Program-made: the position numbers and the translations under genes
Shown: positions 2,828 through 36,847 of the stretch, one piece after another
How the letters are laid out: the number at the start of each line of letters is the position of its first letter
Position numbering within the stretch: position 1 is the first letter of the stretch
Notes under the pieces: generated by a model
Told to the model about the DNA's origin: nothing
Databases searched by the model: none
What the model saw: the letters and a program-made list of their open reading frames with translations, nothing else
Assembly: GCA_000995065.1 (NCBI GenBank)
Contig: LBWX01000001.1
Span: 223,563-287,562 of the forward strand
Length of the DNA: 64,000 nt
Origin: a candidate division CPR2 bacterium GW2011_GWC2_39_35
GTDB taxonomy: Bacteria > Patescibacteriota > CPR2
Direction: 5' to 3'

Positions 2828-2836
2828 ACACCCTTT

Positions 2837-3973: not shown

Positions 3974-4362
3974 CTCCTCCTAATCACCAAAAAGAACTAT
4001 TTTACTTTTAATGTGCATGCTAGAACTATTTCCAGCAGCCGAAGCGACCTACTCGAGGTGAAGCCAGTAGGCCGTTTCGACGGCTCGAAGATTAAAAACA
4101 AAAAAGACCCGAGCGGGTCAAGTGGTGATACAAAAGAAAATTTGTACAAAAAAATGCGACCGGTTTCACCACTAGCTCCCCGTGACCATAAGGTGACCAA
4201 ATAATAGGTCACGGATCGAAGCTTCCGCTTTATCCTGCGGGATATTTGCATATCCGTAAGGGATAAAATAATTCTAATTTAAAGTTGTTAACACCGCTAT
4301 TTTAACATTTGGTTGTTTATGTGTCAATAGTTTTCCTGAACCATTTCCTGAACCATTCCTGA

Positions 4363-4506
4363 ACCACCCTCACTTTTTTGTCATCCCCGTGAATACTTAG
4401 GATCCAGAAGGCTTGGGGACATAGTGAGCTTCCCGGATTCCCGCCTGCTCGGGAATGACAACTAGCGTTACTTTTCTTGTTTTTTAAAAAGTGAGGGTGG
4501 TTCAGG
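4363..4506. repeat. G+C-rich ~100-nt palindromic element (copy A, minus orientation relative to copy B) nested inside a perfect 18-bp inverted repeat gaaccaccctcactttttt / aaaaagtgagggtggttc followed by T-run
   Basis: Reverse complement of ~4382-4480 aligns at roughly 80% with ~10015-10112 (gtcattcccg..gcgggaatcc..ggaagc..ccaagccttctggatcc..cacggggatgac); termini gtcat...atgac inverted. Confidence 0.7.
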
Positions 4507-4655
4507 GTTTTTTCTCGGTAATTCCTCACAACCCCCTCGTCACTCAGAGAAGTTCAGACGACGAAGCAATCTCTATTTGATTTGCAAACAGAATACGGCT
4601 ATAGACGTGAAGAGAGGGCCTTCGGTTGAAGACCCTCCTGGGGTAAGCGTTGCTG

Positions 4656-4853
4656 TTATTTCTTGTATGTTAGGTCCCATGCGTCTCGCATGGAAATAAA
4701 TCCGCCCTCACTTTCTACTTCCTTTTGAATTTTTATCGCCTCCCTATGACGATCCATTTCCTCCTTATCTCTTGCAGCCAGAGCGGCAAGAGAAAGATGT
4801 ATTACTACTGCAATCGCAGCAATAATTACGACGGCGTTCATCAGCTTTTTCAT
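4656..4853 (-). CDS. small single-pass membrane protein (65 aa from ATG with AGGGGGAA SD)
   Basis: MKKLMNAVVIIAAIAVVIHLSLAALAA then charged tail; SD agggggaa 6 nt upstream of ATG at 4853; ORF-track version starts further upstream. Confidence 0.45.
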   Translation of the reverse strand: MKKLMNAVVIIAAIAVVIHLSLAALAARDKEEMDRHREAIKIQKEVESEGGFISMRDAWDLTYKK

Positions 4854-5035
4854 AAAAGATTCCCCCTTGAAAGTTTGAGTTTTACAGTGAACGGCTGATT
4901 CGAACCTAATCCCCATTTATTAAATAACAGACAGCAACTTACCCTCTGTCTCTTAATGAGATGAAAATACACTACCACAAAAAACCAAATATGTCAATAC
5001 TATTTTAACCGAGCGATTTGTAATATATTGGTTTA

Positions 5036-6106
5036 ATGGATGACGAAGACCTAAAATATTGGCTTGCAATAGACAAAACTCAAATTATAGGGCCCAAGAG
5101 GATGCCAATATTGTTGGAATATTTTAAAGAAGTTAAAAACATATGGGAAGCACCGGAACAAGAACTCTTAAGGGTCGGTCTCAACAGGACTACTGCCAAA
5201 CTTTTTCTCGAAAAAAAGAGAACAATCTGTCCAGATAAACTGCTACCCATCTTAGAAAAATTAAAAGTAAAACCCATCACCCTTAATAATCCGGATTATC
5301 CCATTTTACTAAAACATATCCCTGATCCACCGATAGTTATCTATATTAGAGGGAATACTAATCTGAATGTAGAAGGAGTCGGCATTGTCGGCACCAGGAA
5401 AGCGACTAATTATGGCCATTCTATTGCCTTCGAATTTGCCAGAGAGATATCTAAATATGGCATATCTATAAACTCCGGCCTTGCCATCGGTATCGATTCC
5501 TACTCCCATAAAGGCGCCTTAGATTCTAAAGGCAGAACCATTGCCGTTCTAGGGTCGAGCATTGACCGCATCTACCCGGCGGTAAATTTCCAAATCGCTC
5601 AAAAAATTCTAGGACATGAGGGCTCCATTATTTCCGAATATCCGCCTGGCACTCCCGGAGGAAAATACCAGTTCGTGGGTAGAAATCGGATTATTGCCGG
5701 ACTCTCTAAGGGCGTTCTTGTAGTGGAAGCACCCGAAAAATCGGGCGCCTTAATTACCGCCGACTTCGCCCTGGAACAGGGAAGAGAAGTCTACGCTATT
5801 CCGGGAGATATTTTAAACAAAAATTCCATTGGACCCAATAATTTAATAAAAAATGGCGCCAAGATAGTTACCAAAGCTCTAGATATCTTGGAAGACTTTG
5901 ATATCAAAGAGAATGAAAAAGCATCGATAAACCTTTCCGAGCTAGAAGAGAGGATTTTAGAATGCTTAAACGAGCCCAAAGGCATTAACGAGATCGTCAA
6001 AGAATTGAGCTTGAATGTTACGGATATTGGATCTCAAATGACCCTTATGGAGCTTGACGGCTTAGTTACAAACCGAGGCGGCTCGATGTATTCCAAAAAT
6101 ATCTAG
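5036..6106 (+). CDS. dprA: DNA processing protein DprA (Smf)
   Basis: GIVGTRKATNYG, AIGIDSYSHKGAL, IAVLGSSIDRIYP, KSGALITA...EQGREVYAIPG Rossmann-fold DprA motifs; C-terminal wHTH-like extension. Confidence 0.9.
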   Translation: MDDEDLKYWLAIDKTQIIGPKRMPILLEYFKEVKNIWEAPEQELLRVGLNRTTAKLFLEKKRTICPDKLLPILEKLKVKPITLNNPDYPILLKHIPDPPIVIYIRGNTNLNVEGVGIVGTRKATNYGHSIAFEFAREISKYGISINSGLAIGIDSYSHKGALDSKGRTIAVLGSSIDRIYPAVNFQIAQKILGHEGSIISEYPPGTPGGKYQFVGRNRIIAGLSKGVLVVEAPEKSGALITADFALEQGREVYAIPGDILNKNSIGPNNLIKNGAKIVTKALDILEDFDIKENEKASINLSELEERILECLNEPKGINEIVKELSLNVTDIGSQMTLMELDGLVTNRGGSMYSKNI

Positions 6107-6152
6107 AACTAAGCCATTGTGTTAAAACCACTTTAGCTTTAATATTAAATTT

Positions 6153-6893
6153 ATGAAAATCAAATTTCTAGGAACAAGCTCTGCCTTGCCGCTACCAAGA
6201 ATTAACTGTCAAGGAAGACAAATTTGCCTGTCAAAAGACCCCAAAGATCAGCGGCTTAGATCGAGCCTTCTTATTGATAATCGAATACTCGTAGATTGCG
6301 GACCGGATGTTTACACGCAGCTTCTCCGCGCCGGCATGCCCGTTATCGAAGCAATTATTTTTACTCATAGACACGGCGACCATATAAATGGATTCAAGCT
6401 GAATTTTAAAGAACCGCAAACCGCAGAAGTAAAACTTTACGGACCAAAGGAAGTCTTTAAGCGAATTAGAAACGAATATAAGTTTAAGAATTCGGCCCAT
6501 ATATATAAGAATGGGGAAGCGTTGGATTTTGACGCCTTTACCGTAAATCCGCTAAAGATTGATCACGAGGGACTGGATAATTACGGTCTCCTAATATCAA
6601 CGAACAAAAGACTTTTTTACGCGCCGGACATCGAAGCAATCCCAAAAATAACGCTAGAAGTAATAAAAGAGGCCGATATCTTGGTTGTCGACGGTTCTAT
6701 ACTAAATGGGCCGCATTACGGACATATTGGAATCGACCGTCTCTTAGAGATAATAAAACCCTTAAATAAGGAAACTTACTTTACTCATATTGGCATAGGA
6801 AATCCACCTCACAAAGAGCTGGTTAAGTACGTAAAGGAGAAAGGTGGAGACAATTTTAACGTTGCCTTTGATGGCATGGAGCTAGAAATATGA
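6153..6893 (+). CDS. MBL-fold metallo-hydrolase (PhnP/RNase Z-like family)
   Basis: FTHRHGDH (HxHxDH) motif, later D and H ligands (HIGIG); 246 aa. Confidence 0.7.
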   Translation: MKIKFLGTSSALPLPRINCQGRQICLSKDPKDQRLRSSLLIDNRILVDCGPDVYTQLLRAGMPVIEAIIFTHRHGDHINGFKLNFKEPQTAEVKLYGPKEVFKRIRNEYKFKNSAHIYKNGEALDFDAFTVNPLKIDHEGLDNYGLLISTNKRLFYAPDIEAIPKITLEVIKEADILVVDGSILNGPHYGHIGIDRLLEIIKPLNKETYFTHIGIGNPPHKELVKYVKEKGGDNFNVAFDGMELEI

Positions 6894-7810
6894 TTCACTA
6901 TTATCCATTCAGGAAGGGCTACAAAAAACATCCTTATCTCGGAATTACTTATGCTGTTTCGGCAATGCTTGCCGGCTCTATTGCAACTGTGATTATAAAA
7001 TTCTTTAATCACATTCCCAGCCTCCAGATTACCGCTTATTGGCTTTTTATCGGCTCCTTAATTTCTTTAACACTTAACTATTTTAAAGATAGGGAAACGA
7101 AAGTGCTTAAAATTATCAAAAAAAAGCCGAGGTTGCTAATATTACAAACCGTAACTGCTACTTTATCAGCTTTTTTCTTTGTAAATGCCATAAGCCTCTT
7201 AAATCCATCGACTGCAATTTTCGTTTACTCAACAACATTTATTGTAGCCTGCACCTTAATCGGCAAATATTCGTTTGACGATAAATTATCAAAAATCCAA
7301 TATTTTTCCATGTTCGGAGCCTTAGCCGGCCTAACCATTATTACTAAAGATAATTTAGTCGTAAATTCCAACTCTGGATTTATCTCCATCTTTTTAGCCG
7401 CCATCTCGCTCAGTATTAGCGGTTCTATCGTAAAAAAGCATTTTACTCCCGAAGAAACCTTTTCTCTAAACTCACTTAGGAGCTTCTTGGGTGGCGGCTT
7501 CTTATTATTATTAGCTTTGCTCTTACAAGAACCGGTCTTTCCATCGATATCAGCACTCCCGTTATTTTTATTAGGTTTGATGCTCGCTAATGTGATTCAA
7601 TACTCATTTCAATACAAAGCTTATGATTTAGAAAAACTGGAAGTTGTTTCTATTATCGATTCAATGAGGCCTTTTATTGTGCTTATCTTAGCCTTCTTTT
7701 TTTTACAAATTATGCCTAAGGGAACCGAAATTCTAGGCGGAATTATCATGATTGTTTCCGCTTCTTTGTTAATCTTAGGTAATAAAAAACTTGACGAAAT
7801 CGAAAATTAA
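6890..7810 (+). CDS. EamA/DMT-family transporter (10 TM helices)
   Basis: two repeated 5-TM halves, ~300 aa polytopic membrane protein; start overlaps upstream stop (ATGA). Confidence 0.65.
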   Translation: MIHYYPFRKGYKKHPYLGITYAVSAMLAGSIATVIIKFFNHIPSLQITAYWLFIGSLISLTLNYFKDRETKVLKIIKKKPRLLILQTVTATLSAFFFVNAISLLNPSTAIFVYSTTFIVACTLIGKYSFDDKLSKIQYFSMFGALAGLTIITKDNLVVNSNSGFISIFLAAISLSISGSIVKKHFTPEETFSLNSLRSFLGGGFLLLLALLLQEPVFPSISALPLFLLGLMLANVIQYSFQYKAYDLEKLEVVSIIDSMRPFIVLILAFFFLQIMPKGTEILGGIIMIVSASLLILGNKKLDEIEN

Positions 7811-7825
7811 AATATCCTTATACTT

Positions 7826-9901
7826 ATGGCAAAGAACTTACTTATAGTAGAATCGCCTGCAAAGGCCAAGACAATTGAAAAATATTTAGGAAAAGATTAC
7901 CAAGTCAAAGCAAGTTTTGGGCATATTAGAGACCTGCCAAAATCAAAGCTAGGCATTGATATTCATGACAATTTTAAACCTGAGTATATTATTCCCAAAA
8001 AATCCCAAAAAACTGTTAATGAACTAAAAAAATCGGTGTCAGCAGCTAAAAAAGTATATTTAGCCACAGACTTGGACAGAGAAGGCGAGGCTATTTCTTG
8101 GCATATACTAAAAGCAACCGGGTTAGATCATAAATCAGATAAAGTAGATCGAATTACTTTTCACGAAATTACCAAAGATGCAATCCTAGACGCTTTGGCG
8201 CACCCAAGAAAAATAAATAAAGACTTAGTAGACGCCCAGCAAGCAAGGCGAGTCTTAGATAGACTCGTGGGCTACAAGTTAAGCCCGCTTTTGTGGTCTA
8301 AGATAAGAAGAGGCTTGTCGGCCGGTAGAGTTCAGTCAATCGCCTTAAAACTTATTATTGATAGGGAAAGAGAAATTGATAAATTTGTCCCAAAGGAATA
8401 TTGGTCAATCGATGCCATCCTAGAAAAGAAAAAGAAAGAGTTTAAAGCCAGTCTTATATCCAAAAATGAGAAGAAATTAGAGATACATAACGAGAGTGAA
8501 GCAAAAGGCATCTTAAAAGATTTAGAGAATGCGGATTATATAGTTCGAGATGTAATCAAAAAAGAAGTCAAAAGAAATCCTGTAGCACCTTTTATAACCA
8601 GCACCTTGCAGCAAGATGCCGGCCGAAAATTAGGTTTTTCGGCAAAAAAAACCATGATGCTTGCCCAGCAGCTTTATGAAGGAATCGATTTGGGTCCGGA
8701 AAGTCATGTCGGCCTTATTACTTATATGAGGACAGACAGCACCAGTCTATCTGACGCAGCAATTGCAAACATCAGAAAATTAATCGAGTCCAAATACGGA
8801 AAAGAATATGTGCCTTCAAAACCAAGAGTTTTTAAAAAAGCAAAAGCGGCTCAAGAAGCACATGAAGCCATCAGGCCAACTCATATAGAAAAGGAACCGG
8901 ATAAAGTAAAACAATACTTATCAAAAGATCAATATCGCCTCTATGCTCTTATTTGGAAAAGAGCACTAGCCTCACAAATGGAGAGCGCCGTCTTAGATCA
9001 AACTTCTATCGATATAAAAGCCAGTGACTATATCTTTAGAACCACTGGGTCTATCATAAAATTTCCGGGTTTTACCAAAGTTTACGAGGAAAGTAAAGCC
9101 AGGGAAGAGCAAGAAGAAAAGAATGTTCTCCCAGAACTAGACAAAGGAGAAAAATTAAAGCTAGTTTCTCTTACCCCAAATCAGCATTTTACTTTAGCCC
9201 CGCCAAGATATTCCGAAGCAAGTTTAATTAAAGTCCTAGAAGAAGAGGGAATCGGCCGGCCATCAACTTACGCTCCGACTTTAAGCACCTTGAAGGATAG
9301 AGGCTATATTGATGTTATAGACAGAAAACTTCATCCCAAAGAGATTGGTTTTATCGTAAACGATCTTTTAGTAGAAAACTTTTCTAATATCATAAACCTT
9401 TCCTTTACGGCCCAAATGGAAAAAGAGTTTGACGAAATTGCTGAAGGCGACGTCGCCTGGCAGGAAGTGATCAAGCATTTTTGGGATCCTTTTTCTAAGC
9501 AGCTAGAAGAAAAACAAGACACAATTAAAAAAGTAGAAATGCCGGTCCAGATGACCGATGAGATCTGTCCTGATAGCGGCCACCCAATGATAATAAAGCA
9601 GGGAAGATACGGCGAATTCATGGCGTGTTCGGGTTGGCCGGAATGTAAATTTACCAAGCCCTTAGTTAAAGACTTGGGTGTTAAATGTCCGGATTGCCAA
9701 GAAGGGGACATTATCGAGAGAAGAACTAAAAAGGGCCGGATTTTTTACGGCTGTTCTACATTTCCGAAATGTAAATTTGCTTCTTGGGATAAGCCAGCGA
9801 CTAAACCATGTCCGGACTGCGAGGGTTTAATGGTTGAAAAAGGAAAAACATTGCGCTGCATAAAATGCGGTCACGAAGAACAAAAAGAAGATAATAAATA
9901 G
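7826..9901 (+). CDS. topA: DNA topoisomerase I
   Basis: MAKNLLIVESPAKAKTIEKYLG...GHIRDL Toprim, active-site region GLITYMRTDS, C-terminal multiple Cys4 zinc ribbons (CPDSG..C, CPDC..C, CPDCEG..C). Confidence 0.95.
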   Translation: MAKNLLIVESPAKAKTIEKYLGKDYQVKASFGHIRDLPKSKLGIDIHDNFKPEYIIPKKSQKTVNELKKSVSAAKKVYLATDLDREGEAISWHILKATGLDHKSDKVDRITFHEITKDAILDALAHPRKINKDLVDAQQARRVLDRLVGYKLSPLLWSKIRRGLSAGRVQSIALKLIIDREREIDKFVPKEYWSIDAILEKKKKEFKASLISKNEKKLEIHNESEAKGILKDLENADYIVRDVIKKEVKRNPVAPFITSTLQQDAGRKLGFSAKKTMMLAQQLYEGIDLGPESHVGLITYMRTDSTSLSDAAIANIRKLIESKYGKEYVPSKPRVFKKAKAAQEAHEAIRPTHIEKEPDKVKQYLSKDQYRLYALIWKRALASQMESAVLDQTSIDIKASDYIFRTTGSIIKFPGFTKVYEESKAREEQEEKNVLPELDKGEKLKLVSLTPNQHFTLAPPRYSEASLIKVLEEEGIGRPSTYAPTLSTLKDRGYIDVIDRKLHPKEIGFIVNDLLVENFSNIINLSFTAQMEKEFDEIAEGDVAWQEVIKHFWDPFSKQLEEKQDTIKKVEMPVQMTDEICPDSGHPMIIKQGRYGEFMACSGWPECKFTKPLVKDLGVKCPDCQEGDIIERRTKKGRIFYGCSTFPKCKFASWDKPATKPCPDCEGLMVEKGKTLRCIKCGHEEQKEDNK

Positions 9902-23569: not shown

Positions 23570-24982
23570 TTAACAAAACTTCTCCCCTAAATATTCTTTG
23601 AGGCTCCCAATCCCCACTCTATCTTGCTTCATTGTATCTCTATCCCTTACAGTCACAGCATTATCTTTAAGAGTGTTAAAATCTATTGTCACACAATACG
23701 GGGTGCCGATTTCATCTTGTCTTCTATATCTTTTGCCGATGCTCTGGGTTTCATCGTAATCGCACATATAACTGGTTTTTAGCAGATCAAAAACTTCTTT
23801 AGCTTTAGAAATCAGGTCTTCATTTTTAGAAAGTGGTAGGATTGCAATCTTGTATGGCGCCAATTCTTTTGGTAGCTTTAAAACGGTCCTTATTTCGATC
23901 TTATCACCAGACCCAATCTCTTCTTCCTCATATGCCGATAGCAAAGCCACTAACATGGTTCTCTCAACCCCAAAAGTTGGTTCGATAACATGGGGAATAA
24001 ATTTCTGATTTGTCACTGGATCTACATACACTATATCTTCACCAGAAGCCTTTTCGTGATGACTTAGGTCATAATCGGTTCTATAAGCAAGCCCCCACAA
24101 TTCTTTGGTTCCAAATGGGTATTTAAATTCAACATCGATTGTTCTTTTTGAATAATGAGCTCTCTTCTCGGCTGGAATCTCATGAAGATAAATATCTTCA
24201 TCCTTAAGACCAATGGCTTTAGCAAATCTTTGCATCTCCTTTAGCCAGAACTCGAAACTCTTTTCCCAATCCTTGGGATTTATAAAATATTCGATTTCCA
24301 TCTGCTCAAATTCTCTGGTTCTAAAAACAAAATTACCAGGCGTCACCTCATTCCTAAAAGCCTTGCCAATCTGTCCAATTCCGAATGGTATTCTTTTTCT
24401 GGTAGAAGCTAAAACATTTTTAAAATTAACAAAAATTCCCTGAGCTGTCTCCGGTCTTAAATAAGCCGCCGATTTAGTATCCTCGACAACCCCAATATAT
24501 GTTTTAAACATGAGACCAAATGACCTGGCATCCGTCCAGTTTATAGATTTGCAATTGGGACAAGCAATCTTATCCTTTTGGATAATTCTAGATATTTCCT
24601 CTAAGGATTTTCCCTCTACGTCCTCCCCAGTTGTGTCTTCAACAAGATGATCTGCCCTGAAACGAAGCTTGCAATTTAAACAATCAACCAAGGCATCTGC
24701 AAAGCCGCCAACGTGACCAGAAGCCTCCCAAACTTTAGGATTTAAAATAATAGCGCTATCAAGACCAACCATGTCCATTCTTTCCTGAACAAAGTGCTGC
24801 CACCATAGCTTTTTGATATTATTTTTAAGCTCAATACCCAAAGGCCCAAAATCCCATGTATTAGCAAAGCCGCCATAAATTTCTGACGATGGATATATAA
24901 AGCCTCTTTGCTTTGCAAGGGATTGAATTTTCTCCATCGTCACTTTTTCTGTTTTTTCCATGAGAACTCCTTTAAAAATCAA
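23570..24982 (-). CDS. glyQS: glycyl-tRNA synthetase, dimeric class II (GlyQS-type)
   Basis: IQSLAKQRGFIYPSSEIYGGFANTWDFGPLG N-terminal signature; class II motifs; anticodon-binding C-terminal domain; true start probably the internal MEK... Confidence 0.9.
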   Translation of the reverse strand: MIFKGVLMEKTEKVTMEKIQSLAKQRGFIYPSSEIYGGFANTWDFGPLGIELKNNIKKLWWQHFVQERMDMVGLDSAIILNPKVWEASGHVGGFADALVDCLNCKLRFRADHLVEDTTGEDVEGKSLEEISRIIQKDKIACPNCKSINWTDARSFGLMFKTYIGVVEDTKSAAYLRPETAQGIFVNFKNVLASTRKRIPFGIGQIGKAFRNEVTPGNFVFRTREFEQMEIEYFINPKDWEKSFEFWLKEMQRFAKAIGLKDEDIYLHEIPAEKRAHYSKRTIDVEFKYPFGTKELWGLAYRTDYDLSHHEKASGEDIVYVDPVTNQKFIPHVIEPTFGVERTMLVALLSAYEEEEIGSGDKIEIRTVLKLPKELAPYKIAILPLSKNEDLISKAKEVFDLLKTSYMCDYDETQSIGKRYRRQDEIGTPYCVTIDFNTLKDNAVTVRDRDTMKQDRVGIGSLKEYLGEKFC

Positions 24983-25358
24983 AAAAATCGGTATTTCTTA
25001 ACTCTTCAAACGCTTCTTCATCTAATTTTCCTAGGCTAACTAGATATTCCAAATCTTGAACAAAATCTTTATACAACGCATGGAATAGCTCCAGGTTTTC
25101 TTCTTTTATCACCGAAAAGGCCCTAAAGTTTTCAGAAACCCATTCCTCGACTTCCCTTTCAGTCATCATCTTGCCTTCTGTCTTAGAAGGGTTATTTAGC
25201 ATTCTGTCTGGCACGTCGCAACCCCAAAATTCGTAATCCTCAACATTCCAAGCTAGTTCGCTTTTTCCTGTCGGATACTTTTTTTTCCAAGCATCTTGGC
25301 GCTTTGACTTTTCCTTTTGCATGTGCCTTATTTTACTCTTTTTTAGCTTCCAGGTCAA
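24972..25358 (-). CDS. hypothetical protein inserted between recO and glyQS
   Basis: 128-aa ORF, basic N-terminus, no recognisable motif; start overlaps... 3' end overlaps glyQS start by 11 nt. Confidence 0.35.
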   Translation of the reverse strand: MTWKLKKSKIRHMQKEKSKRQDAWKKKYPTGKSELAWNVEDYEFWGCDVPDRMLNNPSKTEGKMMTEREVEEWVSENFRAFSVIKEENLELFHALYKDFVQDLEYLVSLGKLDEEAFEELRNTDFFDF

Positions 25359-26098
25359 TTTATAATATTTACTTTGGCAATAAATTGCTTAGATTTTAAA
25401 GACCGATGAAGTATCTTTTCGATGTACGATTCATTAAATTTTTTAATTTCCATAAGCAGTTCGTCCAAATTGGAAACCTTTATGATAATGTCTTGATCAA
25501 ATCTAAGCATCATTCTCATAAGCTTAATAGCATTATCACTTACGGCATATGCTTCTGGATCTTTTCTAAAACAATCGTGGCACAAAACCCCTCCAAAATT
25601 CTTGCTTAGGCTGCATTTTCCAGGATCTAAAGATTCATGGCAATTAACGCAAGACTCCAGTTCCGGGCCAAAGCCAAGTTTTGAGAAGATTCTAATTTCA
25701 AAGATACTTAATGCTAATTCGGGACTTATTTTAAGACCGTTTAAAGCCTTAATAAATTCTCTATAAACCGCAGGGTTTGGCTCCCTATCGGGAATAATCT
25801 TATCTAAAATCTCTGCCAGATAATAAGCCTTGCCCAACTTTCCTAAATCTTCTCGTAAAAACAAAAATCTTTCCTTTGTTTCTGCCGAACACAAAGTGTC
25901 AAAGTTCTTCCCCTCTGCAAACATAAAATTATTTAAATAAAAAAGATCGAGGCTGCCAGCCATTTTGCTCTTAATTTTTCTAGCTCCTTTGGAAATCACG
26001 GTTATTTTACCTTTTGCAGGAGTAAAAACTTTAAGAAGTAAATCTGCTTCTTTAAAGCTGGATCTTTTTATAATAATTCCTTCTGTTTTATACGTCAC
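25355..26098 (-). CDS. recO: DNA repair protein RecO
   Basis: N-terminal OB-fold (GIIIKRSSFKEADLLLKVFT), Cys4 zinc motif CVNC...C..C; recO-glyS linkage as in era-recO-glyQS clusters. Confidence 0.85.
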   Translation of the reverse strand: MTYKTEGIIIKRSSFKEADLLLKVFTPAKGKITVISKGARKIKSKMAGSLDLFYLNNFMFAEGKNFDTLCSAETKERFLFLREDLGKLGKAYYLAEILDKIIPDREPNPAVYREFIKALNGLKISPELALSIFEIRIFSKLGFGPELESCVNCHESLDPGKCSLSKNFGGVLCHDCFRKDPEAYAVSDNAIKLMRMMLRFDQDIIIKVSNLDELLMEIKKFNESYIEKILHRSLKSKQFIAKVNIIN

Positions 26099-26486
26099 TT
26101 AGAGGAAGAACCTTTCTTATCTTTTCTACGACCTCGTCGGGAGTGTGCCTGGATTTAATCAGATAATCTCTAACGCCAAGGGCATAAATAAGCTCCTGAT
26201 TCATGTCGATCTTAGCTTCTCCGAGATTTGTGAGCATGATTACCGGAATCGATCTATAATCCGGAATCTTTTTCATTTCCTTTAAGACTTCGAAACCATT
26301 TACATCCGGCATCAGTATGTCTAAAAGAATTAAATCTGGTACTAATTTCCCCTTCAACTTCTCTAGAGCTTCCTTACCGGAATGAGCTAATTCTACTCTG
26401 TAGCCCTCCATTTCCAATTTGGTCTCATACATCTCCACCAAAATGATATCATCTTCGACTAATAAAACTGTTTGTTTCTTTGACAT
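26088..26486 (-). CDS. single-domain response regulator (CheY-like receiver only), start at ATG 26486 after GAGGAGG
   Basis: MSKKQTVLLVEDD...LDILMPDVNGFEVLKEMK...IPVIMLTN; receiver D/D/K positions present; no output domain; ORF-track N-terminal extension overlaps the kinase and is not credible. Confidence 0.8.
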   Translation of the reverse strand: MSKKQTVLLVEDDIILVEMYETKLEMEGYRVELAHSGKEALEKLKGKLVPDLILLDILMPDVNGFEVLKEMKKIPDYRSIPVIMLTNLGEAKIDMNQELIYALGVRDYLIKSRHTPDEVVEKIRKVLPLSDV

Positions 26487-26502
26487 TATGCCTCCTCTAA
26501 AA

Positions 26503-28515
26503 TTAATTATATAATGGCAAGGTAAAAGTAAAATTCGAACCCTTGCCTTTTTCGCTTTCGGCCCAGACTTTTCCTCCCTGCGTTTCAACCAGACTCTTAG
26601 TGATATAGAGTCCCAAACCCGAACCGCCGGCCTTAACACTAAGCTCATTTTGAATTCTACTAAACTTTTTGAATAATTTATCCATATCAAATTCCGAAAT
26701 TCCGACTCCCTGATCCTTTATACTTACCTCCGCCATCCCCTCATCATTTATTTTTACATCAACTCTTACTTTCGATCCGGCTTGACTATACTTAATAGCG
26801 TTACCAATAAGATTATATAGGATTTGTTTAAGCCGGTCAGCATCCGCCGAAACATTAGAAAAATTCTGAGGAATGTAAACTCTCACCCTAATATTTTTTG
26901 AGAGACTCTTTATGGTAAGTTCATCTATAACTTCCTGAAGCACTCTATTTAAAGAAATAGGTTTAATAGTTACAGATACCTTTTCAGTCTCGATCCTATT
27001 AATAACTAAAAGATCTTCGACAAGCAAAACCATTCTTTCTGTACTTTGGTAAACTCGATTTAAAAAATGAAGCTGTTTTGCTTCCAAGTCTCCAACATCA
27101 CCCTTAATAATCATCGAGAGAAACCCTTTAATGGCCGTTAATGGAGTACGAAGCTCATGAGAAACAATCGAGGTAAAATCTTTTTTCAGTTGATCGACTT
27201 CTTTTAGCTTCGTAATATCTCTTACGGTTATTATAATAAGCGACTCGCGCTCTATTTCTTTTTTAAGAACAGATAACGACACCTGTCCCCAAAACTCGCT
27301 ATTGTCTTTTCTTTTAAGAACAATTTCTATAGTCTCACTCTGATAATTTTTCTTCTCAATTTTTTGTAAGGCTTCGGAAATTGGACAATTTTTACAAATA
27401 CCCTTACTATCAACTTCAAGCCCGACATAACAATGAAAATCTTTTCCAAGCATTTCTTCTTCTTTATAGCCTACCATCTTTTCTAGGGCCGGGTTAGCAG
27501 CCAGTATTTTCCTGGTAGTTTTATTCACCACCAACACCCCATCACCGGTATGGTCAAAAACCGCTTGCCACTTTTCTTTTTCGAGCAATGCCTCTTTTTT
27601 CTGATTTTCAATATCAGTTACGTCTCTAAAATTGCTGGTGACACCAATAATTTTATTGCCGCGTTTAATTGGCGACAATCTAGTCTGTAGCGTTCTTGTT
27701 TCTTTAGAAAGCTTAAGACTAGAAAAATACTCTTGAGTTTTGCCGGTCTCAACCACTTTCGAAAAAACTTCATTCGGGTCTCTTTGTGAATCAACGCGTT
27801 GATTAAAATGTGCGCTTTGATTACTTAAGTAGTCTTTTCTAATTAATCCCCTGATATCCTTTTTCATTCCTAATATCCGCTCTGCCGCTTTATTATAATC
27901 AATTACCTTCCCTCCTATATCAAATAAAATCAGCCCGTCCTCGATAGCATCTTGAACCGTCTCCAGCTTTAATTTCTCGGACCTTATTTTTCGAATTAGT
28001 TTTTGGTTATTAATTGCAAAAGCTATTTGAGAAGCAAGGAGGGATAAGATATAAATTTGTTTGGCATTAAAAAGATTTTTGCCGTCACCGTAAATAGTTA
28101 GAACACCAACTAATTCGTCATTAATAATCATTGGCGCCGAAGCCATCGAAACAACATTTTCTTTTTCCAATTCTTTTTTCATTGATAGCGGCATGTCCTC
28201 TAATTCATGAATGTTGCTAGCCATCATTACCTTCTTATTGGAGATTGCTTTCAAAATAGGGCTGCTCTTAATCGAATTAAATGGCAACTCATGCAAACTA
28301 TCTTTAGAAAAACCGCTTACCGCCATCTTCTGTGAAATCCCGCTTTCAAAAAAAATAACACTGCTTTTTTTGACTCCCGTAAGCTTAGTTATTTTGTCTA
28401 CCGAAAGCCTTAAAATTTCATCAACGCTATAACCAAAAACATTAATCTTAGTACTCTCTTGAATTAAAAGATCTACTTCTTCTCTGGTTAGATCGGGGGT
28501 TTTAGTTCTTGTCAT
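26503..28515 (-). CDS. cytoplasmic sensor histidine kinase (GAF + PAS domains, HisKA, HATPase_c); no TM segment
   Basis: H-box SHELRTPLTAIKGF, N-box/G-boxes ...NLIGNAIKYS..., GLGLYITKSLVETQGGKVWAESEKGKGSNFTF; N-terminal GAF-like and PAS-like regions. Confidence 0.85.
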   Translation of the reverse strand: MTRTKTPDLTREEVDLLIQESTKINVFGYSVDEILRLSVDKITKLTGVKKSSVIFFESGISQKMAVSGFSKDSLHELPFNSIKSSPILKAISNKKVMMASNIHELEDMPLSMKKELEKENVVSMASAPMIINDELVGVLTIYGDGKNLFNAKQIYILSLLASQIAFAINNQKLIRKIRSEKLKLETVQDAIEDGLILFDIGGKVIDYNKAAERILGMKKDIRGLIRKDYLSNQSAHFNQRVDSQRDPNEVFSKVVETGKTQEYFSSLKLSKETRTLQTRLSPIKRGNKIIGVTSNFRDVTDIENQKKEALLEKEKWQAVFDHTGDGVLVVNKTTRKILAANPALEKMVGYKEEEMLGKDFHCYVGLEVDSKGICKNCPISEALQKIEKKNYQSETIEIVLKRKDNSEFWGQVSLSVLKKEIERESLIIITVRDITKLKEVDQLKKDFTSIVSHELRTPLTAIKGFLSMIIKGDVGDLEAKQLHFLNRVYQSTERMVLLVEDLLVINRIETEKVSVTIKPISLNRVLQEVIDELTIKSLSKNIRVRVYIPQNFSNVSADADRLKQILYNLIGNAIKYSQAGSKVRVDVKINDEGMAEVSIKDQGVGISEFDMDKLFKKFSRIQNELSVKAGGSGLGLYITKSLVETQGGKVWAESEKGKGSNFTFTLPLYN

Positions 28516-28756
28516 GTCCCTAAACTACTCTAACTAGCCCAAAAATTCAATCATAAGCAAGATAACAGAAATGAATATTGGACAATAATTAGACTTCCGG
28601 CTTAATTATAAAGCTAGCCAAACAATCCATTTTTTAATTTTTATTTGTAATTTTGAGTTTTGACTTTTGAGTTTTGAATTGGTTAGATAGTAAGTAATGC
28701 TTTATGAATATTAAAAAGATCATTAATAGATTTTTAAACAGAGGGTAAAATAAAAT

Positions 28757-29422
28757 ATGTTCCCGCTTCGTGACAATATTCCATCTCGAAAACTTCCGTT
28801 TGTAACCATAGGAATAATCTTAATAAATATAGCCGTATTTGTTTATGAACTTTCTCTGGGTAATTTGGGATTAGAAGAATTTGTTCTTTTGTACGGATTA
28901 GTACCAGGCAACGTTGATTTTAATAACACGGAGACGCTTTACCCTTTTATTTCAAGCGCCTTCTTGCATGGCGGCTGGCTTCATATTATTTCCAATATGT
29001 GGTTTTTATGGGTATTTGGAGACAATGTCGAAGATTATTTTGGACATTTTAGTTTTCTTTTTTTCTACATCCTGTCCGGCATTGCGGCTGCTATTGCCCA
29101 ATACATAATCGATCCTACATCAACAATTCCGATGATTGGAGCATCCGGCGCAGTAGCCGGAGTTCTTGGAAGTTATCTGTTACTGTTTCCGCGTTCCAAA
29201 GTCCTTACCTTGGTATTTATCTTTATATTTATTACCGCAATAGAAATTCCCGCCCCTATCATGCTGGGTCTTTGGTTCGCGCTCCAGGTTTTAAGCGGAA
29301 TTGCATCACTCGACACCGGCCTAGTTGTAGGAGGTCTCATTGCCTATTGGGCACACATTGCCGGCTTTATTTACGGCCTAGTTATAGCAGCGATAAGTAA
29401 ATTTTCAAACCCTAAAGTTTAA
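28757..29422 (+). CDS. rhomboid-family intramembrane serine protease
   Basis: FLHGGWLHIISNMWFLWVFG, catalytic GASGAVAG (GxSG) and downstream AHIAGF His. Confidence 0.85.
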   Translation: MFPLRDNIPSRKLPFVTIGIILINIAVFVYELSLGNLGLEEFVLLYGLVPGNVDFNNTETLYPFISSAFLHGGWLHIISNMWFLWVFGDNVEDYFGHFSFLFFYILSGIAAAIAQYIIDPTSTIPMIGASGAVAGVLGSYLLLFPRSKVLTLVFIFIFITAIEIPAPIMLGLWFALQVLSGIASLDTGLVVGGLIAYWAHIAGFIYGLVIAAISKFSNPKV

Positions 29423-29491
29423 CCTCTCATACACAAGTTTTTTATAGAAATAACTAGTTTTAATGAACCTCAGGCTCGCTATACTTTTTTT

Positions 29492-29863
29492 ATGACAATA
29501 AGAAAAAAAGCAAAAAATTTAAATGAAAAAGAAAAGGAAATTTTAAAAAAAGACCGAGAAAATGATTGGGAGCTATACCGGACATCAGGAGGCCAAGAGA
29601 TTCTTGAAGACTTAGAAAATCCCGAAGTAGACATCAATCTATATGCTGACGATCTCGATGCCGGCTGGAAATACGATGTAGAAACTGGTGAAGAAACGAT
29701 ATCAGGCACCGTACTTACTCCGGATAAAGACCAAATAGACGAAATTGGAAAAGGCATTGGCCTGACATACGACGTCGACGAAGAGCTAGATGCAGATAAA
29801 AAAATTAAATGGAAAGAGGCTCAGAGGTGGGAACCCCCAGAGCCGGAAAAGGAGGACAGATAG
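29492..29863 (+). CDS. acidic hypothetical protein translationally coupled to the downstream S2P gene
   Basis: 123 aa, D/E-rich; its stop TAG overlaps the GTG start of the next gene (TAGTG) which is preceded by AAGGAGG. Confidence 0.45.
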   Translation: MTIRKKAKNLNEKEKEILKKDRENDWELYRTSGGQEILEDLENPEVDINLYADDLDAGWKYDVETGEETISGTVLTPDKDQIDEIGKGIGLTYDVDEELDADKKIKWKEAQRWEPPEPEKEDR

Positions 29864-30981
29864 TGTTTCTAACAGGAGCTTTTAAAATTGCTAGAATCTT
29901 TGGAATTGATATTGAGATTGATTACTCCTGGCTTATAATATTTTCTCTTGTTACCTGGACCCTCTCAACCGGTTTTTATCCGATAAATTTCCCGGAGCTT
30001 TCTCTTAATACAAACATTATTCTAGGCACCGTTACTTCCATTGTTTTTTTTGCCTCCGTTATTTTTCATGAATTAGCCCATTCCTTAGTCGCAAAAATAA
30101 ACGGCCTAGAAATTCATAAAATTACGTTGTTTTTGTTCGGTGGTGCCTCGCAAATTGCCGAGGAGCCTCAAACTGCTAAAGTAGAGTTTAAAATGGCGGC
30201 TGCCGGCCCTTTATCAAGCCTTTTTCTAGCTGTTTTATTCTGGGTTGTCTCTTCTTCTTTTGCTAATTTATTACCGATTTATCGCCTTCCCCTATTATTT
30301 CTTGCCGAGATAAACTTAATTCTTGCCATATTTAATTTAGTGCCTGGATTTCCAATGGATGGCGGCCGGATACTTAGATCTATTATTTGGCATATTACAA
30401 AAGATTTCTACAAAAGCACTCGGATTGCCGCAGCCGGAGGCAAAATAGTCGCCTTTGGCCTCATCGCCTGGGGAGCTTCCAGAATTATTTTGGTTGGCGA
30501 CATTTCCGGAACTTGGATGATTCTTATTGGCTTTTTCTTAAATCAAGCGGCCTCCTCCTCTCTCCAACAACTTAAAATAAAACAAGTCCTTCAAAAAATT
30601 GAAGTCAAAGAATTGATGGAAAATCCGATCTCTATTCCCTCTGGATCCCCAATTTCAGAAGGAATAAGAGATTATGTCACAAAGTTTAAAACTGACAATT
30701 TTCCCGTAACTAAGAATAATCAAGTAATTGGTATCGTTGACTTAAATGATGCCAAGTCTGTTCCCGAAGATAAATGGGATGAAACTACTATCGATAAAAT
30801 AATGAAGCCCATCGATAGCTCTTATGTGGTAAGCGAAGAAGATAAGGCATTAAAAGCACTTTCTATAATGGATGCCAAGCATATAAGTAAAGTACCGGTC
30901 ATAAATAAGTTAAATAAATTTGTCGGACTTATAACCGATCAGGGATTAGATTATTATTTGACTCTCGAGCTTAAACCATAA
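29863..30981 (+). CDS. site-2 protease (M50 family zinc metalloprotease) with C-terminal CBS-domain pair
   Basis: HELAHSLVA (HExxH), NLVPGFPMDGGRIL (LDG-type motif), C-terminal CBS-like repeats; start assigned to GTG 29863 (in frame with the ORF-track 29809 start, AAGGAGG 7 nt upstream). Confidence 0.8.
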   Translation: MFLTGAFKIARIFGIDIEIDYSWLIIFSLVTWTLSTGFYPINFPELSLNTNIILGTVTSIVFFASVIFHELAHSLVAKINGLEIHKITLFLFGGASQIAEEPQTAKVEFKMAAAGPLSSLFLAVLFWVVSSSFANLLPIYRLPLLFLAEINLILAIFNLVPGFPMDGGRILRSIIWHITKDFYKSTRIAAAGGKIVAFGLIAWGASRIILVGDISGTWMILIGFFLNQAASSSLQQLKIKQVLQKIEVKELMENPISIPSGSPISEGIRDYVTKFKTDNFPVTKNNQVIGIVDLNDAKSVPEDKWDETTIDKIMKPIDSSYVVSEEDKALKALSIMDAKHISKVPVINKLNKFVGLITDQGLDYYLTLELKP

Positions 30982-30989
30982 GAATTCAC

Positions 30990-31018
30990 TTGAATTATTT
31001 TTCCCAACTACCTATAAT
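30990..31018 (+). promoter_or_regulatory. sigma-70-like promoter (TTGAAT-17-TATAAT) in front of second response regulator
   Basis: ttgaat tatttttcccaactacc tataat. Confidence 0.5.
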
Positions 31019-31024
31019 TTAGCT

Positions 31025-31426
31025 ATGATCAAAGTGTTAATTATAGAAGACGATACAGCTCTTGCCAAACTTTATGAAACCAAATTTACAAAGGAAGGTT
31101 TTACGGTTTTTATTGCAAATGACGGTCCATCCGGCGTAAGACTTTCAAAAGAAAATGCACCCGATATTATACTCTTAGATGTCATGCTTCCCCTAATGAA
31201 CGGCTTCCAGGTCCTAAAAAAAATCAGAAAGAATAAAGACACTAAAAAAATTCCCGTCATTATCTTAACGAATTATGGCGAAATGGATAACGTTACTGAG
31301 GGTTTTTTACAAGGCGCAACCGAGTTTATGGTAAAGGTAGAACACACACCTGAGGAAGTAGTAGATACTGTCACCCAGATTCTAGAAACAAATGGCAGTA
31401 TTGTAGGCGAAGCTTTTAAATCCTAA
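31025..31426 (+). CDS. single-domain response regulator (CheY-like), paralogue of 26088..26486
   Basis: MIKVLIIEDD...ILLDVMLPLMNGFQVLKKIRK...IPVIILTN...HTPEEVV; shares HTPEEVV and LTN.GE segments with the other receiver. Confidence 0.8.
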   Translation: MIKVLIIEDDTALAKLYETKFTKEGFTVFIANDGPSGVRLSKENAPDIILLDVMLPLMNGFQVLKKIRKNKDTKKIPVIILTNYGEMDNVTEGFLQGATEFMVKVEHTPEEVVDTVTQILETNGSIVGEAFKS

Positions 31427-31430
31427 GATA

Positions 31431-31625
31431 TTACTCTTTTTCCTCCGCCATGCCACACTGCCCTTCTTCCATCTGCTCTCCTTCCTCGATGATCCCTTTA
31501 ACCGTTTGACCGCCAACATGGCCTGCTTCTTCGGTGGTCCATTCCTCATGAGGCTTCTTTTCTAGCCCTTCCTTTATTTCAATGTCTTCAGCAATTCTTT
31601 TGGAAACATTTTTTTCTTTTTGCAT
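31431..31625 (-). CDS. small acidic hypothetical protein (64 aa)
   Basis: ATG preceded by GGAG 7 nt upstream; E/G-rich; 90 nt downstream of MBL gene, same strand. Confidence 0.3.
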   Translation of the reverse strand: MQKEKNVSKRIAEDIEIKEGLEKKPHEEWTTEEAGHVGGQTVKGIIEEGEQMEEGQCGMAEEKE

Positions 31626-32328: not shown

Positions 32329-32583
32329 TTAACAATTTAATTCCTCTTCCTCAACATCTTCCACCTGTGCCGTGTATGTTTCGCATTCCGCTATTTTAGA
32401 AGCGCCGGTATGAATATGAACATAAATATGTTTGGCAACACAATGAGGATTTGTACCATCTCTGTTATTATATTCACAATCTGTAGCCGAACAGCCTATA
32501 TCGACTCTCTCCTCCATCAATTTTTCACCCCCTCCCTTTTTAATAAAAATAAAAGAAGCGCCGATAGAAATCAACAGCGCCAT
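32329..32583 (-). CDS. small secreted Cys/His-rich protein (signal peptide + ~60-aa mature part)
   Basis: MALLISIGASFIFIK hydrophobic N-term; 5 Cys and HIYVHIHTG; start chosen at internal ATG to avoid overlap with upstream gene. Confidence 0.3.
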   Translation of the reverse strand: MALLISIGASFIFIKKGGGEKLMEERVDIGCSATDCEYNNRDGTNPHCVAKHIYVHIHTGASKIAECETYTAQVEDVEEEELNC

Positions 32584-32597
32584 AAAAAAATTTCTTC

Positions 32598-32978
32598 TTA
32601 TTTTGCAAAAAATATTGAGTAAATAGCAAAACCAATACCAGGAAGTCCGACCACAAGAAAAAATAGCCAAAAGCTTTTTTTAGTAAAAAAAGCGAGAATA
32701 TGCCCGATAGAAACAATGATTCCCAATATTATTATTCCCAAAAAAGAAAAATACACTTTGCTTGAGAGGTTTTTCGCAAAGTTATTTAAGGCCCATAAGA
32801 AGCCGGAAGACATAAAAACCGGTAATAAATAATTAACAACCATACTAATAAGGCTTCTGGTCTCAACGTCTTTTGTGTTTATTTCGCTCGAAAACTCATT
32901 GGTTTCTACGAGTTCGCCGCTTTTTCCAAACATCTGAAGGTCTTTTTTAGTTTGCGGATCTAAATCGAATTCTCCCAT
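32598..32978 (-). CDS. hypothetical membrane protein (2-3 TM)
   Basis: 126 aa, C-terminal hydrophobic helices. Confidence 0.4.
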   Translation of the reverse strand: MGEFDLDPQTKKDLQMFGKSGELVETNEFSSEINTKDVETRSLISMVVNYLLPVFMSSGFLWALNNFAKNLSSKVYFSFLGIIILGIIVSIGHILAFFTKKSFWLFFLVVGLPGIGFAIYSIFFAK

Positions 32979-34936: not shown

Positions 34937-35515
34937 ATGCAAGAGATATATGAGCAAAGGAAAAGACTCCTCAATAAATTTTATGATGAAAATAAGCGCC
35001 TGCCTAGCTATTCAGAAATGCTTAGCTTATTCTCTTTAAAGTCCAAAAATACTATTGCCTACTTAATCCAAAAACTGATAGATGACGGATTTCTTGAGAA
35101 GGACCAAAAAGGGCGACTTATTCCTAAAAAACTATTTTCCGGCATTAAGCTATTGGGAACGGTAGAAGCCGGCTTCCCTACCCCCGCCGAAGAAGAGCTG
35201 GCTGATACCATTACTTTGGACCAATATTTAATAACCAAAAGAGAAGCCACTTTTCTTTTAAAAGTTTCCGGCGAGTCTATGACTGGCGCCGGAATTTGCC
35301 CGGGCGACTTGGTTTTAATAGAAAGAGGCCGGACTCCAAAACATGGCGACGTGGTGGTAGCTGAGGTTGATGATGAATGGACAATAAAAACTTTTGAGAA
35401 ATTGGGCGGACATATTATTTTAGTCCCCGCAAACCCCAAATTCAAAACCATTGTCCCCAAAGAAAGCCTAAATATCGCCGGAGTAGTCGTAGCAGTGGTA
35501 AGAAAATACCATTAG
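34937..35515 (+). CDS. lexA: LexA repressor (wHTH + S24 peptidase)
   Basis: N-terminal wHTH; Ala-Gly cleavage site VEAGFP; catalytic Ser in VSGESM and Lys in TIKTF. Confidence 0.85.
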   Translation: MQEIYEQRKRLLNKFYDENKRLPSYSEMLSLFSLKSKNTIAYLIQKLIDDGFLEKDQKGRLIPKKLFSGIKLLGTVEAGFPTPAEEELADTITLDQYLITKREATFLLKVSGESMTGAGICPGDLVLIERGRTPKHGDVVVAEVDDEWTIKTFEKLGGHIILVPANPKFKTIVPKESLNIAGVVVAVVRKYH

Positions 35516-35524
35516 AAGTTAAAA

Positions 35525-36847
35525 ATGTCTTGGCAGAAGGATAATGAACAACAATTTTACTCAGGCTCGGCAATCATCCATCTGGATGCAGATTCTTTCT
35601 TTGCCTCATGCGAACAAGCTATCCATCCGGAATACAGAGGCAAACCGGTTATTACCGGCAAAGAGAGAGGTATTGTTTCGGCAGCTAGTTATGAAGCAAA
35701 GAGACTGGGAATCGGCCGCGGCACTCCCCTCTTTGAGGTTAGAAAGATCTGCCCCAACGCCATAATTGTCCCATCAGATTATGAGACTTACAGCCTCTTT
35801 TCTAAAAGGATTTTTACCATCATGCGCCGCTTCAGTCCTATTATTGAGGAATATTCAATAGACGAAGCCTTTGCCGATATCTCGGGTTTAAGGCGCCCCC
35901 TAAACATGTCTTACCCTCAAATTGCTCTCCGGATAAAAGAAACTGTCGAAAAAGAGCTTGGAATTACCGTTTCTGTAGGCCTTGCCCCCACCAAAGTTCT
36001 AGCTAAAGTCGGCTCCAAATGGAATAAACCATCAGGTCTCACCATAATCTCCAAAGAAGATATCCGTCTTTACTTAGAAAATTTACCAGTAGAAAAGGTT
36101 TGGGGTATCGGACCCCAAACCACCAAACATCTAAATAAACACGGTATTAAAACGGCTCTCGAATTTGTTAAAACCCCCTACCCTTGGATCAAGGCAAATC
36201 TTACCAAACCCCATGTCGAAATCTGGCTGGAACTTCGAGGCGAAAGCGTGTACCCGGTAAGCTCAGAGCTAAAGGAAGATTACTCGTCCGTTAGTAAATT
36301 TAAAACATTTACTCCCCCATCTAAAGACAGAAACTTTATATTCTCCCAGCTTTCTAAAAACCTAGAAAACGCCTTTATAAAAGCCCGTCGCCACAACCTT
36401 GCCACCCAAAAAATAGTAGCCATTTTAAGAACCCAAGAATTTAAACATGCTTCCTTAGAAGCAAAGCTTAACAGACCCACTTCTTTCCCAAACGAAGCCA
36501 TTCCGATGGTCAAAAAAATGTTTGAACAAATTTATTATTCAGGGACTCTTTACCGAGCTACAGGAATCATCTTATTAAGCCTTGAAGAAAATAATTCTAC
36601 TCAACTTACTCTCTTTGAGGACCCGTTAAAGTTTGGGAAGATCGAAAAATTATATGCCTCTATCGATGAACTAGCGACTCGCTATGGCAAACACACCATT
36701 TTTCTAGGGTCTAGTTATTATGCTAATAATCTCAAATCCCACCTAAGCGAACGTGGCGACATTCCCGATACTCAAAAAACTAGGATCGGGCAAGTTAACG
36801 AACGTAAGTTTTTGAACTTACCAATATTTATGAATAAATTAGATTAA
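35525..36847 (+). CDS. dinB: Y-family translesion DNA polymerase (DinB/UmuC-like)
   Basis: IIHLDADSFFASCE, SIDEAFADIS catalytic motifs; palm/fingers/thumb/little-finger length (440 aa); 10 nt after lexA. Confidence 0.85.
   Translation: MSWQKDNEQQFYSGSAIIHLDADSFFASCEQAIHPEYRGKPVITGKERGIVSAASYEAKRLGIGRGTPLFEVRKICPNAIIVPSDYETYSLFSKRIFTIMRRFSPIIEEYSIDEAFADISGLRRPLNMSYPQIALRIKETVEKELGITVSVGLAPTKVLAKVGSKWNKPSGLTIISKEDIRLYLENLPVEKVWGIGPQTTKHLNKHGIKTALEFVKTPYPWIKANLTKPHVEIWLELRGESVYPVSSELKEDYSSVSKFKTFTPPSKDRNFIFSQLSKNLENAFIKARRHNLATQKIVAILRTQEFKHASLEAKLNRPTSFPNEAIPMVKKMFEQIYYSGTLYRATGIILLSLEENNSTQLTLFEDPLKFGKIEKLYASIDELATRYGKHTIFLGSSYYANNLKSHLSERGDIPDTQKTRIGQVNERKFLNLPIFMNKLD

Follow-up and report, generated by a model that had tools for sequence, protein, structure and literature searches.

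A putative branched two-component gene set beside recO and its intramembrane protease neighbors in a CPR2 bacterium

Gene content and signals of the locus

We analyzed a 64-kb stretch of DNA (hereafter, the window) from the candidate division CPR2 bacterium GW2011_GWC2_39_35, in which a cytoplasmic histidine kinase (HK), two single-domain response regulators (RR1 and RR2), a rhomboid protease, an acidic DUF6335 protein and a site-2 protease (S2P) are encoded side by side next to recO. All six genes had been described in an initial annotation made from the sequence alone, and their open reading frames (ORFs) and domains were confirmed. HK and RR1 lie on the minus strand, and the rhomboid, DUF6335, S2P and RR2 genes are read divergently on the plus strand; the catalytic motifs are intact in HK, the receivers, the rhomboid and S2P. 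The window sequence is identical to contigs of a CPR2 bacterium from Rifle groundwater (GCA_001771115.1, MESU01000052).

The HK gene (26503..28515, minus strand) encodes a 670-aa protein in which Pfam places a GAF domain (residues 30-168), two PAS domains (189-301 and 314-436), a HisKA domain (444-510, E=1e-16) and a HATPase_c domain (558-669, E=9e-30). The H-box (SHELRTPL, with H453), the N-box (NLIGNA at 568, with N568), the G1 box (DQGVGI at 601) and the G2 box (GGSGLGL at 630) are all intact, as in class I (HisKA) sensor histidine kinases. No hydrophobic or transmembrane-like segment was detected on a scan of the protein, which indicates a cytoplasmic kinase and agrees with its earlier description as soluble. 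RR1 starts 16 nt past the HK stop codon.

RR1 (26088..26486, minus strand, 132 aa) and RR2 (31025..31426, plus strand, 133 aa) are the only receivers in the window. Response_reg is the sole Pfam match of each (E=4e-22 for RR1 and E=2e-23 for RR2), in keeping with the earlier view of two output-less regulators. Both retain the acidic pair, phospho-acceptor Asp, Thr and Lys of CheY-like receivers (D12/D13, D56, T86 and K111 in RR1; D9/D10, D52, T82 and K104 in RR2). Their paralogy is supported by 41% identity (E=1e-32), although the HTPEEVV motif that they were said to share reads HTPDEVV in RR1. The alpha-1 residues of the two proteins are similar (L-[VA]-x-[ML]-Y-x-T-K-[LF]). The RR1 ortholog group carries a three-residue insertion (KIDMN) after the LTNxGE motif and has no RR2-type tail; RR2 orthologs share a C-terminal tail, GS[IM][IV]GxAFK, beyond the receiver fold (31385-31426 in the window, residues ~121-133). 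Matches of the receivers include RR468 (3DGE, E=2.5e-19 for RR2), Spo0F and DivK, and also the receiver halves of PhoB/OmpR-type regulators.

The rhomboid gene (28757..29422, plus strand) encodes a 221-aa protein (Pfam E=2e-35) with several hydrophobic segments, an H71-x4-H76-x3-N80 motif, a GASG motif containing S130, and H200 within AHIAG; with this Ser-His dyad and polytopic core, it is a rhomboid intramembrane serine protease. The S2P gene (29863..30981, plus strand, 372 aa) combines Peptidase_M50 with two CBS domains in Pfam, and its zinc-site residues are present as H69-E70-x-x-H73 in HELAH (69-73) and as D166 in NLVPGFPMDG (158-167, NxxPGFPMDG). It belongs to the CBS-bearing S2Ps, a large group defined by one or more C-terminal CBS domains (PMC11486902). 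Among solved relatives, mjS2P is the best match (3B4R, E=4e-25), followed by SpoIVFB (8VJL, E=4e-10). More than 3000 S2P-CBS homologs of ~372 aa, at ~40% identity, are spread over archaea and many bacterial phyla, and the 372-aa form agrees with homologs in length and N-terminus.

Between the two protease genes lies the DUF6335 gene (29492..29863, plus strand), whose product is a 123-aa acidic protein (pI 4.4, 36 D+E; Pfam 51.3 bits vs. a cut-off of 25) with no transmembrane segment on a hydrophobicity scan. An exhaustive profile search, used in place of a word-index search that gave only 4 proteins, placed the family in 825 representative clusters, mostly from Chloroflexota and Acidobacteriota. 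The family core of ~90 aa is acidic and conserved (GGDxDAxW...PTPDQD...GLTY...RWE). An AlphaFold2 model built from a 60-sequence alignment is largely disordered and of low confidence (pLDDT 66, pTM 0.30), with predicted helices at residues 12-29, 79-89 and 101-113, the latter two within the conserved core. No paper mentioning DUF6335 was found in a literature search.

As annotated earlier, the GTG start of S2P at 29863 overlaps the TAG of the DUF6335 gene (TAGTG), and AAGGAGG (29849-29855) lies seven nt upstream. The 1-nt overlap is present in the window and in one relative, L007 (L numbers denote the lineages and loci compared). Gene overlaps are general in this compact genome, and elsewhere at the locus they measure 11 nt between RR1 and recO, 4 nt between recO and the next gene, and 11 nt between that gene and glyS; on this background, the TAGTG overlap says little for a special coupling.

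RR2 is preceded by the promoter-like sequence TTGAAT-17-TATAAT (30990..31018, plus strand), which had been proposed as its promoter and which ends 6 nt upstream of the ATG; a Shine-Dalgarno sequence is missing. Matches of this type are not enriched in the AT-rich region (26 found vs. 18.3 +/- 4.7 expected). The box gains weight because an equivalent (TTGnnn-17-TATAAT-like, 6-7 nt before the start) recurs before RR2 in L007, L088, L171, L174 and L172. L172 keeps it even though the S2P gene upstream is deleted, and L173 has only a degenerate -10-like version. Because the box recurs with or without S2P upstream and lacks a Shine-Dalgarno sequence, RR2 is probably its own transcription unit, possibly a leaderless one, as far as a promoter can be read from sequence.

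Upstream of HK, the 13-nt GCTTATGATTGAA (28546..28558, minus strand) contains a -35-like TTGAAT, and a -10-like TAGTTT follows 17 nt downstream, ~6 nt before the HK ATG. This element is invariant in the window, L088, L171 and L174 and unique in the window at 0 mismatches; together with the -10-like box, it is probably the HK promoter. Its candidacy as a shared operator was rejected, as it is found in the loci only upstream of HK. At the rhomboid, HK and RR2 genes (28723-28756, 28516-28558 and 30990-31024, respectively), a -10-like box ends 5-7 nt before the start and no Shine-Dalgarno sequence is seen, a pattern that suggests leaderless transcripts. S2P, unlike these three genes, has the strong AAGGAGG.

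The tandem repeat reported between HK and the rhomboid gene does exist (TTTTGAGTTTTGAC x1.9, 28651..28677, no strand assigned, Tandem Repeats Finder), but it falls within a ~140-nt insertion that is specific to this genome; the corresponding intergenic regions of L088, L171 and L174 are 101-111 nt long and do not contain it. As a regulatory element, it was rejected for want of conservation in relatives.

Conservation and loss among related lineages

Neighborhoods were sampled via orthologs of DUF6335, S2P and RR2 and verified by tblastn and pairwise identity. The RR2 set comprises 10 lineages (the window, L007, L088 and L171 through L177), whose orthologs are 52-100% identical, in a series descending from 83% to 52%. 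In the window, L088, L171 and L174, the order is recO<-RR1<-HK on one strand and rhomboid->S2P->RR2 on the other, followed by a convergent metallo-beta-lactamase (MBL) hydrolase gene. L007 carries rhomboid->DUF6335->S2P->RR2 on a contig that ends before the kinase side. In L177, RR2->HK->RR1->recO and a 128-aa gene run on a single strand with no protease genes. The order in L173 and L176 is PBP1a->RR2->RR1->recO, with neither HK nor proteases, and L172, which is close to L088, has recO<-RR1, an HK remnant and RR2->. L175 has an RR2-like gene at 52% identity.

Across these lineages, the linkage of RR1 and RR2 beside recO held in every locus where it could be judged. HK accompanies the receivers in five lineages and persists as a remnant in L172, and the proteases accompany them only in the CPR2 clade (the window, L007, L088, L171 and L174). 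The earlier assignment of RR2 to HK and RR1 is supported by the single-strand order of L177 and by the adjacency of RR2 and RR1 in L173 and L176. The gene most constantly linked to RR1 is recO (25355..26098, minus strand; Pfam RecO_N/RecO_C). RR1 always lies directly upstream of it, with the stop region of RR1 overlapping the recO start. The tightly overlapping string of RR1, recO, a gene for a 128-aa protein and glyS (23570-26486, minus strand) is kept in every relative sampled; the 128-aa protein has no family match and is 37% identical in L177.

The receivers are also the best conserved proteins of the set. Between the window and L171, identity is 78% for RR1, 73% for RR2, 65% for the rhomboid, 56% for S2P, 49% for HK and 47% for recO. 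HK orthologs in L088, L171, L174 and L177 are 38-49% identical, and the HK sensor region varies within the CPR2 clade (510 to 670 aa). In L172, two frameshifted HATPase fragments (6446-7001, corresponding to HK residues 550-654) lie between intact RR1 and RR2, and most of HK, the rhomboid, DUF6335 and S2P is gone; identity between L172 and L088 is nevertheless 91% for RR2, 81% for RR1 and 71% for the adjacent MBL gene.

Within the clade, the window and L007 have an intact DUF6335 gene, L088 retains only a decayed remnant, and L171 and L174 have no copy. The remnant lies between the rhomboid and S2P genes (3019-3279 in L088), and its 3' half can be aligned, with stops and frameshifts. The S2P proteins of L171 and L174 are 240 aa long and lack CBS domains (56% identity over the core). 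DUF6335 thus occurs only where S2P has CBS (the window, L007 and, as a remnant, L088).

From the gene content, the motifs and the observed pattern of conservation and loss, we consider it probable that the locus is a juxtaposition, in which a conserved branched two-component system stands beside a clade-specific rhomboid-(DUF6335)-S2P string. Most likely, judging from the sequences, HK would autophosphorylate on H453 and pass the phosphoryl group to RR1 (D56) and RR2 (D52). The output-less receivers would then act by binding other proteins, or one of them might drain phosphate from the other. The HK/RR1/RR2 trio beside recO is the unit that CPR2 and sister Patescibacteria lineages have conserved, and the rhomboid-(DUF6335)-S2P string encodes general intramembrane proteases of widespread families with no detectable dependence on the two-component genes.

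Several points weigh against this reading. The proteases are kept between HK and RR2 in five CPR2 lineages whose proteins are only 49-78% identical, and there may be some selection for the CPR2 gene order. A gap of only 43 nt separates S2P from RR2 downstream, both on the plus strand, and co-transcription of the two by read-through is possible. Moreover, we infer phosphotransfer to both receivers solely from linkage and the similar alpha-1 residues. In favor of the juxtaposition, CPR2 genomes are collinear over ~20 kb, from mraZ, ftsL and PBP2 to recO and, on the other side, through the genes for the MBL hydrolase, a LexA-like S24 peptidase and a Y-family polymerase to those of an ABC transporter. 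Because collinearity extends over this entire stretch and is not peculiar to the six genes, their shared order tells little about function.

A different role for the receivers was also considered. RR1, RR2 or both might be Spo0F-like intermediates of a multistep phosphorelay, with a DNA-binding regulator from another locus as its final acceptor. The resemblance of RR2 to Spo0F, DivK and RR468 would fit such a relay, as would the arrangement in L175, where the RR2-like gene is followed by an OmpR-type regulator with Trans_reg_C. However, 52% identity leaves it uncertain whether the L175 gene is an ortholog, HK is no hybrid kinase, and no Hpt/Spo0B-like gene, third receiver or output-bearing regulator was found in the 64-kb window. 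We regard this relay as unlikely.

The initial annotation had suggested that the six genes make up a phosphorelay-controlled module for regulated intramembrane proteolysis (RIP), in which the acidic protein would be a possible partner or anti-sigma-like factor. In such a module, HK and the two receivers would control proteolysis by the rhomboid, S2P or both, for example through a receiver acting on the CBS pair, and the DUF6335 protein would serve as substrate, anti-sigma-like partner or adaptor. The retention of the arrangement in five CPR2 lineages and the DUF6335/S2P overlap in the window and L007 are in line with this proposal, and CBS-bearing S2Ps do signal, as SpoIVFB does with Pro-sigmaK (PMC11486902). 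Nevertheless, the proposal failed the co-conservation check, since the receivers persist where the proteases are deleted (L172) or absent (L173, L176 and L177). Among 80 more distant S2P-CBS loci from metagenomes (35-43% identity), none encodes a rhomboid or an adjacent HK and only one (L114) an adjacent receiver; a six-member rhomboid HMM, applied to guard against misses by single-sequence search, gave no additional matches in the comparison loci. RR2 has a conserved promoter-like box of its own, and the flanking housekeeping genes are equally syntenic. The anti-sigma-like role fares no better: the DUF6335 protein has no membrane segment, its gene is a pseudogene in L088 and missing from L171 and L174, whose S2P also lacks CBS, and a family scan of the neighboring ORFs (22.1 to 37.7 kb) gave no sigma or anti-sigma match. 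The locus encodes no membrane-anchored substrate together with a sigma factor and shows no co-conservation of the proteases, as would characterize a RIP module of the sigma/anti-sigma type. Because only the collinear CPR2 clade has proteases beside the two-component genes, the module is unsupported, and receiver-controlled RIP appears very unlikely at this locus.

A narrower scenario confines such control to the CPR2 clade, where an ancestral kinase/two-receiver system would have been rewired onto inserted proteases. A phosphorylated receiver, most plausibly RR2 via its tail, would bind S2P or the rhomboid, and DUF6335 would partner the CBS pair, a role proposed because the protein is present only where S2P has CBS. 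We give this scenario only a slight chance.

Protease loci beyond the clade and flanking genes

The rhomboid, the DUF6335 protein and the CBS-bearing S2P might instead constitute a protease module of their own, for example in envelope stress or the quality control of membrane proteins, in which DUF6335 would be the cytoplasmic partner of the CBS pair. Such a module would not depend on the two-component system and is compatible with the juxtaposition that we favor. In another Patescibacteria lineage, L090, the rhomboid gene (46-47% identity) lies 4 nt after S2P (48-50% identity), a DUF6335 gene is found 3 kb upstream of S2P on the same strand, and no HK or response regulator is present. In a Chloroflexota metagenome-assembled genome (L015, 6336-8348), S2P-CBS (E=3e-78) is followed after a 67-nt gap, in the same orientation, by a DUF6335 gene whose product is 221 aa long; the window has the two genes in the reverse order. 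In L032 the two genes lie ~4 kb apart. The restriction of DUF6335 to lineages with a CBS-bearing S2P points in the same direction.

These associations are rare, however. Of 80 DUF6335 loci from genomes, one has an adjacent S2P-CBS gene (L015) and a second has one ~4 kb away (L032), and none has a rhomboid; likewise, neither DUF6335 nor a rhomboid is encoded at any of the 80 distant S2P-CBS loci. L089, a nearer Patescibacteria genome (S2P 50% identical), has neither the rhomboid nor DUF6335, nor any other of the partners. The L088 remnant indicates that DUF6335 can be lost while the rhomboid and S2P stay. There is a weak hint that the rhomboid, S2P-CBS and DUF6335 attract one another, and very few independent events lie behind the link. 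A protease module of this kind is accordingly a tentative possibility, and we rate it as rather doubtful.

At L090, the cluster that ends with S2P-CBS and the rhomboid (2688-8836) also encodes MS_channel_1st_1, BON, DUF5335, Peptidase_M54/DUF2795 and DUF6496 proteins, with divergent PspC/LiaF-like genes alongside, and it looks like an envelope-stress cluster. Weak S2P matches 6-7 kb from DUF6335 in Vicinamibacteria were rejected as linkage; they belong to a different, short M50 protein that lacks CBS and is encoded on the other strand. The clustered DUF6335 neighbors among the 80 loci reflect lineage synteny with housekeeping genes in Acidobacteriota (ORFs read as rpsA, IHF/HU and cmk). This clustering, which includes many spurious high-GC ORFs, gave no functional clue.

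Further genes flank RR2 in the window. A 64-aa acidic ORF (31431-31625, minus strand) is convergent with RR2 across a 4-nt gap and matches alpha/beta-type small acid-soluble spore proteins (SASP) in Pfam just above the gathering score (23.0 bits vs. 22, E=8e-5), which is unexpected in a CPR bacterium; the ORF is called at the identical position in all copies of this genome. An 84-aa Cys-rich protein (32329-32583, minus strand) matches DUF1540 (24.9 bits vs. a cut-off of 22.1), a family known mainly from Firmicutes, and its gene adjoins those of the MBL hydrolase and a small protein with multiple transmembrane segments (32598-32978). Farther downstream (34937-36847, plus strand), the gene of the LexA-like S24 peptidase is followed after 10 nt by that of the Y-family (IMS/DinB) polymerase. 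This pair is kept in CPR2 relatives and looks like an ordinary SOS-type pair.

Significance and comparison with known systems

Overall, the evidence points to an ordinary juxtaposition of genes of known kinds, and the interest of the locus is modest. It offers a well-defined kinase with two single-domain receivers, conserved beside recO in a clade of Patescibacteria that has few regulators, and the natural deletion variants could guide experiments. The presence of DUF6335 alongside CBS-bearing S2Ps is a weak, testable hint. If receiver-controlled RIP were true, an intramembrane protease would for the first time be seen to be gated by a response regulator, and the locus would provide a handle on the substrates of CBS-bearing S2Ps. 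In the literature searched, we found no precedent for two-component control of intramembrane proteolysis, nor for single-domain regulators linked in this way to such proteases; in a paper on Synechocystis rhomboids, Hik33-RpaB was raised only as a future question.

Similar to the RIP cascades of RseA/DegS/RseP and RsiW/PrsW/RasP, the locus encodes intramembrane proteases, here of both the S2P and the rhomboid class. In contrast to these cascades, no membrane-anchored anti-sigma factor, sigma factor or PDZ-bearing S2P is encoded nearby, the DUF6335 protein is soluble, and the association with the kinase is not conserved. In the window S2P, as in mjS2P (MJ0392), whose natural substrate is still unknown (PMC11486902), and in SpoIVFB, an M50 core bearing the HExxH and NxxPxxxxDG motifs precedes a CBS pair at the C-terminus. 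Unlike SpoIVFB, it has no gene for a Pro-sigmaK-like substrate or a BofA/SpoIVFA-like inhibitor nearby, and its ortholog in sister CPR2 lineages (L171 and L174) is free of CBS. The rhomboid resembles the GlpG family in its GxSG serine, its TM6 histidine and its HxxxxHxxxN motif, yet its score against the GlpG equivalog is that of a distant relative (37 bits vs. a cut-off of 250).

Branched systems with single-domain receivers include HK853-RR468 of Thermotoga, DivJ/PleC-DivK of Caulobacter, CheA with a CheY phosphate sink in Sinorhizobium, and KinA-Spo0F. The window kinase differs from these in being fully cytoplasmic, with a GAF and two PAS domains, and the set is always found beside recO. 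Additional differences are the GS[IM][IV]GxAFK tail of RR2, the KIDMN insertion of RR1, and a window without an Hpt protein or output regulator. In common with the branched systems, a HisKA/HATPase_c kinase is encoded beside stand-alone CheY-like receivers, here two paralogs linked to a single kinase.

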